Positions 12,001-18,000 of a stretch of 38,098 nt of DNA are shown one piece after another. The number at the start of each line of letters is the position of its first letter. Position 1 is the stretch's first letter. The position numbers are program-made. Source of the stretch: a virus (lineage: Duplodnaviria; Heunggongvirae; Uroviricota; Caudoviricetes); the IMG/VR virus record IMGVR_UViG_2563366991_000005; one strand, given 5' to 3'.

Positions 12001-15000
12001 AAGTCGCCCTACGCTGTCGCTGAGTGCACTGCTGAAACAGTATGGTATCCGCCTGACGGCTAATCAGGCATATCACCAGATGGCGAAGCTGGGGATCGTT
12101 GAACAACGCGAACGATACAGCCGTACCGCGATTAACAACATCAAAAAATTCTGGTCGCTGACAGCGAAAGGCTGCATGTTCGGCAAGAACATCACCAGTC
12201 CCGTAAATCCGCGCGAGACGCAGCCGCATTTCTTCGAATCCCGATTCCCTGAGCTGTTAAAGCTGCTCGATACCGTTCATTGAGGTGACCGTGAGAGCAC
12301 TACTGACCCCTGAAATTGCCCCGCGTATGGGGATCGTATTGTTCAGGCCCGGTTCAGAGCTGATGCCCCTGTTTATGCAGGGGCGTGTCCTGCTGGAGCC
12401 TGAGCCGGAGCATTATTCATCTTTCGCCAGTGGTGCCGTTCCCGCGGCGTCACAACCGCTGGCGGATGATCCTGCCGTTCGGGCCGTGTTCCGCAATGAG
12501 GCAGTGATCCGTCGTGCTGGTGGCGTGGAATGTCTTGAAAGCTGGTTACTTCGTGAAAAAGGCTGCCAGTGGCCTCATTCCGACTGGCACAGCGAGAACA
12601 TGACCACAATGCGACACGCTCCGGGTGCAATCCGTCTGTGCTGGCACTGCGATAACCAGCTGCGCGATCAGTTCACGGAACGGCTGGAATCAATGGCAAC
12701 GGATAACTGTGCCCGCTGGGTGTTGTCTGTTGTGCGTCGGGATCTCGGTTTTGATGACAGTCACGTTGTGACAATGCCGGAACTGTGCTGGTGGCTGATT
12801 CGTAATAACCTGGCGGATGCCTTACCGGAAAGTGCAGCCCGTAAGGCACTGAGATTACCGAAGCCTGTTGTGCCGTCTGTCACCCGGGAAAGTGACCTTG
12901 TGCCTTCGGTTCCTGCTACCAGCATCATCCAGGATAAGGCGAAAAAGGTGCTGGCGCTGAAAGTGGATCCGGAGTCGCCGGAGTCTTTTATGTTACGCCC
13001 AAAACGTCGCCGCTGGGTTAATGAAAAGTACACGCGCTGGGTTAAGACACAGCCGTGTGCATGTTGTGGAAAGCCTGCTGATGATCCCCACCACCTGATA
13101 GGTCACGGTCAGGGTGGAATGGGTACAAAAGCGCATGACCTCTTTGTGTTGCCTTTGTGCAGAAAGCATCACGACGAGCTGCATGCAGATACCGTGGCAT
13201 TTGAAGAGATGTATGGCTCCCAGCTGGAGCTGATATTTCGTTTTATCGATCGTGCGCTGGCAATTGGCGTGCTGGCCTGATTTTGTGGAGAAAGTTGATG
13301 CGTGATATGTATGAAGTTTTGGACCGCTGGGGGGCATGGGCTGCTGCAGAAAACAGTGGTGTGGACTGGCAACCGGTAGCTGCTGGCTTCAAGCGGCTTT
13401 TACCTCATGGCAGAAAGTCCCGGATTCAGTGCGATGATGATGAGGGCATCATAATAGACGGTTGTGTCGCTAGGTTGCGTAAATACAAGCCGGCAGAGTA
13501 TGAGCTGATAATTGCTCACTTTGTTGTTGGCATTTCGCTCCGTACAATTGCAAAGAAGCGGAAATGTTCAGACGGAACAGTTCGAAAAGATATGCAAACA
13601 GCTATGGGGTTTATTGATGGGTGCTTGTCATTTTTTTTTTATTTAATACAATGAGTTAAGTGCTATGTAAAATCATTCTACTTTCCCAACTTTTATGTGT
13701 ATATAATACCAGGGTAAAGTAACGGAGAATCTTGTGAACATTCAAGCAGTAGACATTTTTTGTGGCGCAGGGGGCTTAACTTTTGGGCTAAAAAAAGCCG
13801 GGATTGAAGTTTCTCATGGCATTGATATTGATGAGTCCTGCCGTTTCGCTATTGAGAGCAATAATCCCTTAACGAAGTTCATTAACCAGTCAGTTACTGA
13901 ACTGCAATCCAGCGATGTGTCTGCTATGTTCAAGGAAGGAAATATTAGATTACTTGCAGGCTGTGCCCCTTGCCAACCGTTTTCCAAGTATCGTAATCCA
14001 AATAGCAGAAAAGATGATACAAAGTGGCGTCTTTTATCTGAGTTTCAGAGGATTGTAAGTGATGTCATGCCAGAGCTTGTGACTATGGAAAATGTTCCTC
14101 AACTTAGAAATCATAAGGTTTTTGAAGAGTTTGTTAGTGTATTAAAGACTCTTGGGTATCATCTGTGGTACGACGTTGTAAAATGTTCCGAGTATGGCTT
14201 GCCTCAAAATAGACGTAGATTAATTCTAATTGGGTCCATATTGGGGCCAATCAGCCTTGATCAAAAAAAAGTAAGCCGTAAAGTTACAGTAAAGGATGCT
14301 ATTGGTCAGTTGCCAAAAATAGGTGCAGGGGAGAAACTCGAAAGTGATCCATTGCATCGTTCGCCTAAATTAAGGGATATTAACCTTAAACGAATCTTGC
14401 ACTCTTTACCAGGTGGTACGTGGGATGATTGGCCTGAAGAAATTAGAGCGGATTGCCATAAAAAGCATTCAGGTGCTACCTATAAAAGTGTTTATGGACG
14501 GATGGTTTGGGACGATACTAGTCCTACAATAACTACCCAATGTTATGGATATGGTAATGGGCGATTCGGACATCCTGAGCAAAATAGAGCAATAACTTTG
14601 CGTGAAGCTGCTATTTTACAATCTTTTCCTATGGATTATAAATTTATTGGAAAAAATACGCCTTTTTCATTCCAAAAGTTAGGAACGATGATTGGTAATG
14701 CTGTTCCCCCTATAATTGGCCAAGTAATAGGGAGAACGTTTGTTAGGCATGTTGAGGGGATAAATATCCGTTAGAGATAATATAATCTTCAGTTGAGTTT
14801 ATTAATAAACGAAGATATAGATCAACTCTCTCTGCTCTAGACTTAACTTCTTCTAAGGGGTCAATTTGCCCCTTTTTAGAGAAGCTAGTACTTCCATGCG
14901 CGAGTTCGTTTCTGATATCCTTAAGCAAGTCTAAGTCAATACCATTTCTACATTCAGGTGAGTTTGCGATAGTTATTCCGTAAGCCTGCGTTATTTTGTG

Positions 15001-18000
15001 TAATACAGGCTTGCAAACATTACCATTGAATTCTTTACGAATATTCAATGAGGCTGAAATTATTCTTTTGGAAATGTCAGTGCCTATCTTTTTATAAAGG
15101 GATTGCCCTGTTTCATTATCTGAAACAATTCTATGCAATATATTTACTTGAAGCTTCTCCCTGAGTGATGCGTAATTCACCTCATTATCTTGTAAATGAT
15201 CATAAATTGACTCGATGCAACCTCTGGCAGTATTTTCAACTTGATTATATAGCATCATATGAACGGATGATTTTAAAATATTTACCCTTAGGATATTAGA
15301 TTCTATTTCATCTTGATGCGCTTGCGGATCTAACTGCTGAGTATGAATCTCTATAGATGATGCAAGAGAAAGCAGTTCCATAATGTCTCTTGCTCTTTCT
15401 TCATATTCATCTCGTAAATCAATTAGACTCATTTTTAAATCCCTAACAACTTATTTTTAACGTAAAAGATTCTGTTTTTTAGCTGGCTGGTATTGTTTGC
15501 ACTATCAGCAGTAACAAGTGTTTCAAATTCCTCTTCAAATAGCCATTCACCTACAGGTACGGCTGGACTCTGGAGTTGTGGGTTAGTTTTTAATGCAAGT
15601 GCAGTTCCCACGGCAATGGCTTCGTATCTGGCTCGTGGGGTGGTTTTACTTGTTGCGGTCTTTTTAAAGCCAATAGGGAAATGGGTAGCAACAAAAGCAA
15701 GCATCATTTCAAAATCATGTTTAAAATTATCAACATCTTGTTGAGTAGTCACAGCTGCTGCTTGTTCATTTAAATAATTATCAATAAAGGGACGGACAAA
15801 TCCCTTATAGTTTTCTAAATCATTTAAATATGCAAAAAATCTCAAAACTAACTCACGATGATCGCCATTCGACCGTTTCCGGTCTGATAATGGAGCTAGT
15901 TGGGAAAAAAGTGAGTTTGTTGAGCATGGGGTCACAACATCTTTATAGAACATTGAGGTAGCAGCATCTGAGCCATGCCTCACTTCCATCGCTTCTAATC
16001 TTTTAACACCTGAGTTGATCCTTTCAAATAAATCTCTTCTATGTTGTTCCTCAACATCACCTTTCAACTCAATAAATCTTAGTGAAGCTCTTAAAAATCT
16101 TCTTTGGCGGCTAGCTAAAAGATCTGAAAATTTGAAACCTTCTAAACTTTTAAGCTCTTTCAAATCCTTTAACTCAAATTGATCGTTCCAAAAATAATAA
16201 ATAGAGCGTATCCGTTGTGAACCATCAATGATTTCTACCCTACCATCTAATTCAGGGTCTTCATTAAATACATCAGCAATGTAAAGGTAAGGTATTGGAA
16301 AGTCTAATAGAATACTTTCTATAAAGCGAGAGGCTGTTTTTGTATCCCACTTGTAATCACGTTGATAATCTGGAATAAAAAGCTCGTTTTTGTCATTTTC
16401 AATATTATCACCATACTTTTGAATAATGACTTCAACGGTCCACTCACGTACATTGTATCCAATGTTTCTCTGAGCGAGTCTGATTTCATTGTCAGCGGAA
16501 GCGGTTAAAGCTGCAATTTCAGCCTTTTTTCTGTTCTTAGCGTGTTCATCTTGTATCTGAGCAAGCTCTTCTTTGAGTTCTTTGAGTGTAGTCATGTTTT
16601 CGTTCCTTTAATTGAAAGTTGATTGTAAGAAAACTATAACGCGTACGCAAAAAGTATTGTATTGTGTTAAGAGTGGTTACTTCGCCACACAACTTAAACC
16701 CGCCGTCGAGCGGGTTTTTTTGTACCTGTAAACCTGGTGCAGTACGGTAAACACGCTGGTGGTCGTGAATACTGACTTTTTATCTTGCTGGCTTTTTAGA
16801 CAAGAGTTATTGGTATGTCATGTTAACCAGAAGGAAAAAAGACATGCTAAAACAGCAAGATATGACAGAAACGGCGAAAGTTGTTTTTAATGAATTAAGC
16901 ATCGAACCGGCAACAGTCGGGGAGATTGCACAAAACACATATCTTTCACGCGAACGCTGTCAGTTAATACTGACCCAGTTGGTTATGGCGGGGCTGGCAG
17001 ATTACCAGTTCGGCTGTTACAGACGCCTTCAGCAATGAAGGACTTTTAATTTGTGAAAATGGGCGGCTGGTGGGTGTTGGTAGCACCTGCCAGCCATTCG
17101 CTCATGCTTACTGGTCACAAGCGAACCACGGCCCACTGCTTTAGCGCAAAAGCAGAGTGAGCCTACCAGAGTTACGCTTACTGATCCATGAAAAATACTG
17201 TAAAAATAAACAGTGTTGATTTAATCAACGCTGATTGCCTGCATTTTATTCAGTCCCTGCCTGATGATTCCATTGACCTGATTGTTACCGATCCGCCTTA
17301 CTTCAAGGTGAAACCCAACGGTTGGGACAATCAGTGGAAAGGGGACGAAGATTACCTTAAGTGGCTGGACCACTGTCTGGCCCAGTTCTGGCGGGTGTTG
17401 AAACCTGCCGGAAGCCTTTACCTGTTCTGTGGGCATCGCCTGGCATCTGATATTGAGATCATGATGCGTGAACGTTTCAACGTGCTTAACCATATCATCT
17501 GGGCGAAGCCGTCCGGACGTTGGAATGGGTGTAATAAAGAAAGTCTGCGCGCATATTTTCCTGCCACAGAGCGCGTTCTGTTTGCTGAACATTACCAGGG
17601 GCCATATCGCGGCAAAAGTGACGGCTATGCGGCAAAAGAAAGGGAACTCAAACAGCACATAATGGCACCGCTGATATCGTATTTCAGGGATGCTCGTGCC
17701 GAACTGGGTATAACGGCAAAACAAATTGCCGAAGCCACAGGTAAGAAAAATATGGTTTCCCACTGGTTTGGTGCCAGTCAGTGGCAGTTGCCGAATGAGG
17801 CTGACTATCGGAAGTTACAGGCACTGTTTTCCCGTATAGCGGCAGAGAAGTTTCAGGAACAACAACTGGAACAACCACACCACCAGCTGGTGGCACCTTA
17901 TGATTCACTGAATCGCAAATATTCTGAATTGCTGGATGAGTTTAAATCTCTCCGGCGCTATTTCTCCGTATCAGTCTCCGTGCCTTATACCGATGTCTGG

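Follow-up and report, generated by a model that had tools for sequence, protein, structure and literature searches.

The question raised by the low-GC island described here, inserted between Q and the conserved backbone of the late region in a lambda-like Escherichia coli prophage, is what its three genes accomplish together. The island is part of the 38,098-nucleotide Caudoviricetes sequence IMGVR_UViG_2563366991_000005 (the whole stretch is referred to below as the window) and encodes a C5 cytosine DNA methyltransferase (MTase), a ParB-like DUF262 protein and a HEPN protein of the MAE_28990 family. Judging from the domains of these proteins and from the company that their genes keep in other genomes, the island is prophage cargo that very probably serves as an anti-phage cassette. 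The cassette is a member of a type of module that was predicted in 2013 and has experimentally validated relatives. To this, the present work adds linkage statistics and a natural deletion of the MTase, which sharpen the mechanistic question.

On examination of the three proteins, all catalytic motifs were found to be intact. The MTase gene is complete, with a GTG start preceded by GGAG, and is convergent with the HEPN gene, the two 3' ends overlapping by 32 bp (14743-14774). The HEPN gene in turn belongs to a minus-strand operon, where its ATG lies 2 nt beyond the stop codon of the DUF262 gene. This layout is as described in an earlier note on the same DNA, and the families which that note expected (PF03235, a MAE_28990-like HEPN and PF00145) were all recovered in profile scans (Table 1). 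In the NCBIfam scan the MTase matched TIGR00675 above the cut-off; its motifs FxGxG, PCQ, ENV, QxRxR and GNAVPP are conserved among 52 orthologues and so is the variable target-recognition region, which suggests that the orthologous MTases share one target motif and hence one specificity.

The HEPN protein scored 64 bits against PF18737 (HEPN_MAE_28990; cut-off 26.8) and also matched PF18735 (1.4e-7). Both motifs singled out in the earlier note, Rx4H of the HEPN protein (R174-NELA-H179-G) and DGSQR of the DUF262 protein (residues 124-128), are there, with family-wide conservation of at least 95%. The DUF262 protein also carries the NTPase motifs I-III. In the AlphaFold2 model of this protein an α/β domain forms the N-terminal part and a helical, ParBDB-like domain the C-terminal part, and the closest solved folds are those of BrxU and SspE. 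A DUF1524/HNH nuclease domain was searched for in the DUF262 protein and not found.

A gene-neighbourhood survey, which the earlier note had proposed, was carried out with one genome per species and an alignment of DUF262 proteins as the query. The 80 loci returned span at least six phyla, with Gammaproteobacteria, Cyanobacteria, Planctomycetes, Bacteroidota and Verrucomicrobia among the groups represented, and include Microcystis aeruginosa (loci L015 and L016), the namesake of the MAE family. A HEPN homologue follows the DUF262 gene immediately and on the same strand in 78/80 loci, the remaining two ending at contig edges, and the gap between the genes is -50 to +12 nt in 76 of the 78 loci with both genes. 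A C5-MTase adjoins the pair in 55 loci, being convergent as in the window in 40, upstream and co-directional in 13 and downstream and co-directional in two. Most of these MTases, 52 in number, are orthologues (E < 1e-90), alongside a few C5-MTases that are not.

Similarly, when viral contigs were scanned independently with the HEPN protein as seed, 52 loci were obtained, of which 51 contain all three genes together; the exception is cut by a contig end, so that linkage is complete in the 51/51 complete loci. The cassette is found in Moraxella phages and in the P2-like coliphage P24B2 (Peduovirus), where it lies beside the replication gene. The three proteins diverge in step, their pairwise identities being correlated (r = 0.92, 0.87 and 0.84). 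The HEPN protein diverges fastest, with a mean identity of 0.43 versus 0.56 and 0.58 for the other two proteins, in keeping with an effector.

Within E. coli the association is equally strict. The MTase occurs in exactly 107 of 5,426 complete genomes and the pair likewise in exactly 107, the whole island block being present in 107 genomes (~2%). The allele of the window (at least 99% identity) is found in 34 genomes, and a second allele, with a nucleotide identity of 90.7% for the MTase and 84.7% for the pair, is found in 73, many of them ST131. The two alleles belong to different lambdoid prophages, and each immediately follows a Q gene. The neighbourhoods and this perfect co-occurrence strongly back the proposal, made in the earlier note, of an MTase-linked restriction-like or abortive-infection module in which a HEPN protein takes the place of DUF1524.

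In P24B2 a run of eight G's in the C5-MTase gene (locus L082, ~2355-2365) contains a +1 frameshift that splits the gene, while the DUF262 and HEPN genes are intact. The frameshift may represent either a sequencing error or slipped-strand on/off switching, and since the former may be the case, P24B2 was rejected as a natural MTase-free example.

That the combination matched no named system, as the earlier note had held, does not stand in view of the literature. A ParB nuclease, a MAE_28990 HEPN and a DNA methylase are listed together in Table 1 of Anantharaman, Makarova, Burroughs, Koonin and Aravind (2013) (PMC3710099), the systems PD-T4-2 and PD-λ-5 have been validated, and RefSeq already labels the genes, as a DUF262 protein, a MAE_28990/MAE_18760 family HEPN-like nuclease and a DNA cytosine methyltransferase. 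The 2013 description is purely computational and consists of one table row, with no system name, experiment or quantification (PMC3710099). All three features that define the MAE_28990 operon are found in the window, namely the HEPN family (PF18737), a DUF262/ParB partner in the same operon and an adjacent DNA methylase; nothing structural differs, the window copy being that of an E. coli lambdoid prophage.

PD-T4-2, reported by Vassallo et al. (2022) from E. coli ECOR65, comprises a DUF262 and a HEPN protein and was validated against T4 in its native strain; it generally protects against T2 and T6 too, T-even phages being those with modified cytosines (PMC9519451). By HHpred its B protein resembles RiboL-PSP (97.8%) and MAE_28990 (96.9%) (PMC9519451). 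We compared PD-T4-2 (RCO39066.1 and its unannotated partner) with the window by means of the PADLOC profile and the published description. The two share an operon of two genes, DUF262 followed by a small HEPN, and the PD-T4-2_A profile matches the DUF262 protein of the window at 4.6e-27 (93 bits), although it covers only profile positions 52-322 of 363 and NsnA scores higher. However, PD-T4-2 has no methyltransferase, whereas the window has a tightly linked one, and the sizes differ (~1.54 kb with a HEPN of ~165 residues in PD-T4-2, 1.85 kb with a HEPN of 229 residues for the window pair). A PD-T4-2-like variant was also seen in the Klebsiella P2-like phage ST16-OXA48phi5.4 (locus L084, 2360-4263), where a DUF262 protein (407 residues) and a RiboL-PSP-HEPN protein (220 residues) are encoded, without an MTase, between tail genes and thus in a different cargo slot.

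From E. coli ECOR7, Vassallo et al. (2022) reported PD-λ-5, which joins ParB/HEPN with an MTase and which they read as a compact prophage system of combined restriction-modification (R-M) and abortive infection with broad protection (PMC9519451). The prophage-borne combination of ParB-like, HEPN-like and DNA MTase components is shared with the window; however, in PD-λ-5 the ParB domain (PF02195, not DUF262) is fused to the HEPN and the MTase is a Dam-like N6-adenine enzyme of the D12 class, whereas the window encodes separate proteins and a C5-cytosine MTase. No PD-Lambda-5 model of PADLOC matches the window proteins, and the relation is one of analogy, not orthology.

The best PADLOC match of the window DUF262 protein is NsnA of Menshen (5.9e-45, 152 bits, residues 14-315), with which it shares the two-domain sensor architecture of ParB-DUF262 and ParBDB. 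Menshen (NsnABC) contains the NsnB ATPase and the inPIN-nuclease effector NsnC, with no reported MTase linkage, whereas in the window the DUF262 gene is succeeded by a HEPN gene and then by the convergent MTase; in the absence of NsnB or NsnC matches, identity with Menshen was rejected. The NTPase motifs I-III are likewise shared with GmrSD, BrxU and SspE, and the SspABCD-SspE system is also linked to a DNA-modification gene. These enzymes carry a DUF1524 His-Me nuclease, whereas the window has a separate HEPN effector, presumably acting on RNA. A GmrSD-type enzyme, including the split GmrS/GmrD form that the earlier note had considered as a counter-explanation, was accordingly rejected. More distantly, residues 7-191 of the DUF262 protein have counterparts of about 30% identity among the ORFs (open reading frames) of some large E. 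coli myoviruses, some of the records being classified as Krischvirus; an example is NC_009821.1 (Escherichia phage Phi1), 116547-117059.

Considering the biochemistry of the related domains, the tight operon and the conserved, mobile linkage of three genes, the mechanism that we favour, and regard as just on the probable side, is that of a methylation-coupled DNA-sensing NTPase which controls a HEPN RNase, forming a hybrid of R-M and abortive infection. DUF262 is a modification-sensing NTPase domain in GmrSD, BrxU and SspE (PMC10952713, PMC12065111), and HEPN enzymes are RNases that work without metal ions and depend on a 2'-OH (PMC3710099). In this scheme a short, invariant sequence in resident DNA would be methylated by the C5-MTase. 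DNA and its methylation state would be read by the DUF262 protein, which is a ParB-like NTPase, has a helical domain for binding DNA and lacks a nuclease domain, methylation acting either to block or to license the response. An NTP-driven switch in this protein would then control its co-translated HEPN partner, and the released RNase may cleave cellular or phage RNA, probably tRNA or mRNA, thereby stopping the infection.

The linkage to an MTase can also be accommodated by a scheme with two separate lines of attack. Anantharaman et al. proposed that HEPN RNases linked to R-M systems form a second, suicidal line of defence, like PrrC (PMC3710099). Extended to the window, this would make the DUF262/ParB protein a restriction DNase that forms a true R-M pair with the C5-MTase, and the HEPN protein a dormant suicide nuclease. 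The R-M proteins would keep this nuclease inactive, much as EcoprrI does with PrrC, until a phage knocks out restriction. The 2013 paper, besides proposing such logic, indeed speaks of a 'ParB nuclease' (PMC3710099). The DUF262 domain shows a weak match to the REase_II profile of PADLOC, at 7e-4 in the protein of the window and as low as 1e-7 among relatives, and the unbroken MTase linkage in the complete viral loci is in keeping with the same idea. Convergent modification and restriction genes with overlapping 3' ends are common in Type II systems, a layout which the 32-bp overlap in the window fits. When the cassette is judged as a classical Type II R-M system, linkage and co-occurrence point for it, whereas clades without the MTase and one clean MTase deletion, both described below, point against it. 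We consider this scheme unlikely.

Several observations weigh against the favoured mechanism, among them pairs that lack a linked MTase. Approximately 17 cyanobacterial loci, from several subclades, have an intact pair with housekeeping neighbours and no linked MTase; the large upstream ORFs of these loci were considered as an alternative partner and rejected, as they encode the housekeeping proteins ClpB and aconitase B. In addition, the loci of Aphanizomenon flos-aquae FACHB-1287 (L061) and Dolichospermum circinale AWQC310F (L064) are collinear and their pairs 96% identical, and a 1.1-kb MTase segment present in L064 (7755-8873) is cleanly deleted in L061 (~7754-7785). After this loss the DUF262 and HEPN genes of L061 have retained all their motifs; the dN/dS ratio between the two loci is 0.5-0.7, with too few substitutions to be informative. 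PD-T4-2, too, was cloned into K-12 without an MTase (PMC9519451). Loss of the linked MTase is thus tolerated, and unmethylated self DNA is therefore not necessarily lethal, unless an unlinked MTase compensates.

The remaining points of this kind concern what searches failed to bring out. The target of the MTase could not be derived from its relatives in the PDB (DNMT1 and M.HaeIII), as the catalytic core alone matches, and the methylome study of ST131 used a strain without the cassette MTase and did not assay 5-methylcytosine (m5C) (PMC4659465). The PADLOC check suggested in the earlier note yielded matches to MTase_II, NsnA and PD-T4-2_A, yet no complete system would be called, the DUF262 protein matching the latter two partially. 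The HEPN protein of the window matched neither PD-T4-2_B nor any other partner model of PADLOC at E <= 0.1, except RTasHEPN at 0.019; the HEPN partners in P24B2 and in the Moraxella and Klebsiella phages did not match PD-T4-2_B either, and the model may be narrow. The sigma70-like promoter that the earlier note assigned to the minus-strand operon was not borne out, as the promoter scan upstream of 16595 gave no site of at least 9/12, the best being a site of 8/12 picked by eye, which is speculative and straddles the junction of island and backbone. A search of one library of papers found no published experiment on the cassette itself and no paper on the mechanism of PD-T4-2 or of the cassette.

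The persistence of pairs without an MTase is taken up by another explanation, in which the pair answers a phage cue, either modified DNA or a phage protein, as presumed for PD-T4-2, and its sensing is licensed by methylation or independent of it. The MTase would then not serve self-protection; its m5C marks may prime the DUF262 sensor or direct its placement, a role that host phosphorothioate has for SspE, or the MTase may instead shield the phage's own DNA from other restriction systems. The stability of the pair in several clades without a linked MTase and after a recent deletion agrees with this explanation, as does the activity of PD-T4-2 in K-12, again without an MTase, on T-even phages with modified cytosines; the NTPase of SspE, moreover, is stimulated by the host's own modification. 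A purely hitch-hiking MTase, however, would not have kept its place beside the pair in 55 genomic and 51 viral loci spread over different phyla, and it is also at odds with the three arrangements and the non-orthologous replacements. The conserved target-recognition region and the co-divergence of the proteins argue instead for a specific functional tie, and the explanation as a whole appears quite improbable. Protection by methylation may thus not be the logic of the cassette: if the DUF262 NTPase took m5C marks as a cue for licensing or positioning and gated the HEPN RNase accordingly, the cassette would be an epigenetically licensed DNA-to-RNase immune switch. We put this forward as a doubtful possibility, which would explain how the pair survives MTase loss without cell death, while mobile copies always carry the MTase.

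The perfect co-occurrence of MTase and pair in E. coli, and the fact that in the viral-contig scan the cassette is always complete on mobile elements, might further be taken as signs of an addiction module. Type II R-M systems can behave as selfish modules of this kind; here the prophage would be stabilised by post-segregational killing, with the MTase as antidote, the DUF262-HEPN pair as toxin and no significant anti-phage role. Pairs without an MTase are, however, tolerated, and the cassette occupies recognised slots for defence cargo, after Q in lambdoid phages and beside the replication gene in the P2-like P24B2. Measurable phage defence by the homologous or analogous PD-T4-2 and PD-λ-5 (PMC9519451) further speaks against this possibility, which we regard as very improbable.

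The boundaries of the island were defined by BLASTN comparison with mEp460, whose homology to the window stops at 13626 and restarts at 16637. The cargo therefore includes the last nine codons of Q, which come from the insert and replace the backbone version. The GC content is 0.33-0.40 over 13400-16800 and 0.48-0.58 in the flanks. The earlier note was right about the low-GC block and its start within the last codons of Q, but not about its end at the intrinsic terminator, as ~16630-16722, terminator included, is common to SfII, mEp460 and Stx2a phages and hence belongs to the backbone. At the start of the insert, overlapping the final Q codons, lies a putative promoter for the MTase gene, the best consensus match of the region. 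No match was obtained in an Rfam search of 13000-17400, and a Q-dependent late promoter, sought by eye relative to the island, could not be placed with confidence.

Table 1. Features of the island and its immediate surroundings, in window coordinates.
Feature	Position	Strand	Evidence
Antiterminator Q gene (context)	13283-13654	+	PF06530, 6e-46; boundary 13626
Promoter-like site TTGTCA-16-TACAAT, 5' of the MTase gene	13625-13652	+	Consensus match 10/12, best of the region
Low-GC cargo island, 3,010 bp	13627..16636	.	BLASTN vs mEp460, GC, E. coli genome occurrence
C5 cytosine DNA methyltransferase, 346 aa, complete	13734-14774	+	PF00145, 2.7e-54; TIGR00675; PADLOC MTase_II 1.2e-88
MAE_28990-family HEPN protein, 229 aa, predicted RNase effector	14743-15432	-	PF18737, 2.9e-17
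ParB-like DUF262 protein, 386 aa, predicted NTP-dependent DNA sensor	15435-16595	-	PF03235, 5.8e-26
Weak candidate promoter TTGCGT-17-TACAAT, DUF262-HEPN operon	16650-16622	-	8/12, by eye, speculative
Intrinsic terminator, phage backbone (context only)	16696-16722	+	16696-16717 in the terminator scan: 8-bp stem, -13.8 kcal/mol, z = -3.1

The post-Q slot of mEp460 holds unrelated cargo, an ORF of 56 residues (locus L081, 1035-1205, plus strand) and one of 308 residues (L081, 1515-2441, minus strand), neither of which has a Pfam or PADLOC match. Since different genes are carried there, the post-Q interval can be regarded as a variable cargo slot. This suggests that the space between Q and the terminator is a cargo hotspot with uncharacterised contents, in line with what the earlier note held of the Q-S interval.

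Certain neighbouring genes lie outside the island, in backbone common to mEp460. These are an ORF of 72 residues with weak winged-helix-like matches (16820-17038, plus strand) and an N6/N4-type DNA methyltransferase (PF01555; 17188-18240, plus strand), whose counterpart in the ST131-type prophage (locus L085, 8420-8878) is a truncated pseudogene. A second low-GC block (GC 0.33) adjoins the prophage integrase (386-1609) and contains an ORF of 517 residues (1781-3334, minus strand), without Pfam or PADLOC match, which may be another cargo gene. A further local dip in GC (0.39) is seen at 19600-19999, between the lysis and terminase genes.

Modules of DUF262 and HEPN proteins are validated defences. 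The MTase-linked version is widespread, occurring in at least six phyla, in lambdoid, P2-like and Moraxella phages and in ~2% of the complete genomes of E. coli, with numerous ST131 isolates among the carriers, and its location in an ordinary E. coli prophage makes the cassette easy to clone and mutate. It thus offers a direct route to testing how a ParB-like NTPase couples the methylation state of DNA to an RNase, as well as the link between R-M and abortive infection that was proposed in 2013. If the cassette is active, it would affect the host range of phages used in therapy and horizontal gene transfer in clinical E. coli lineages.

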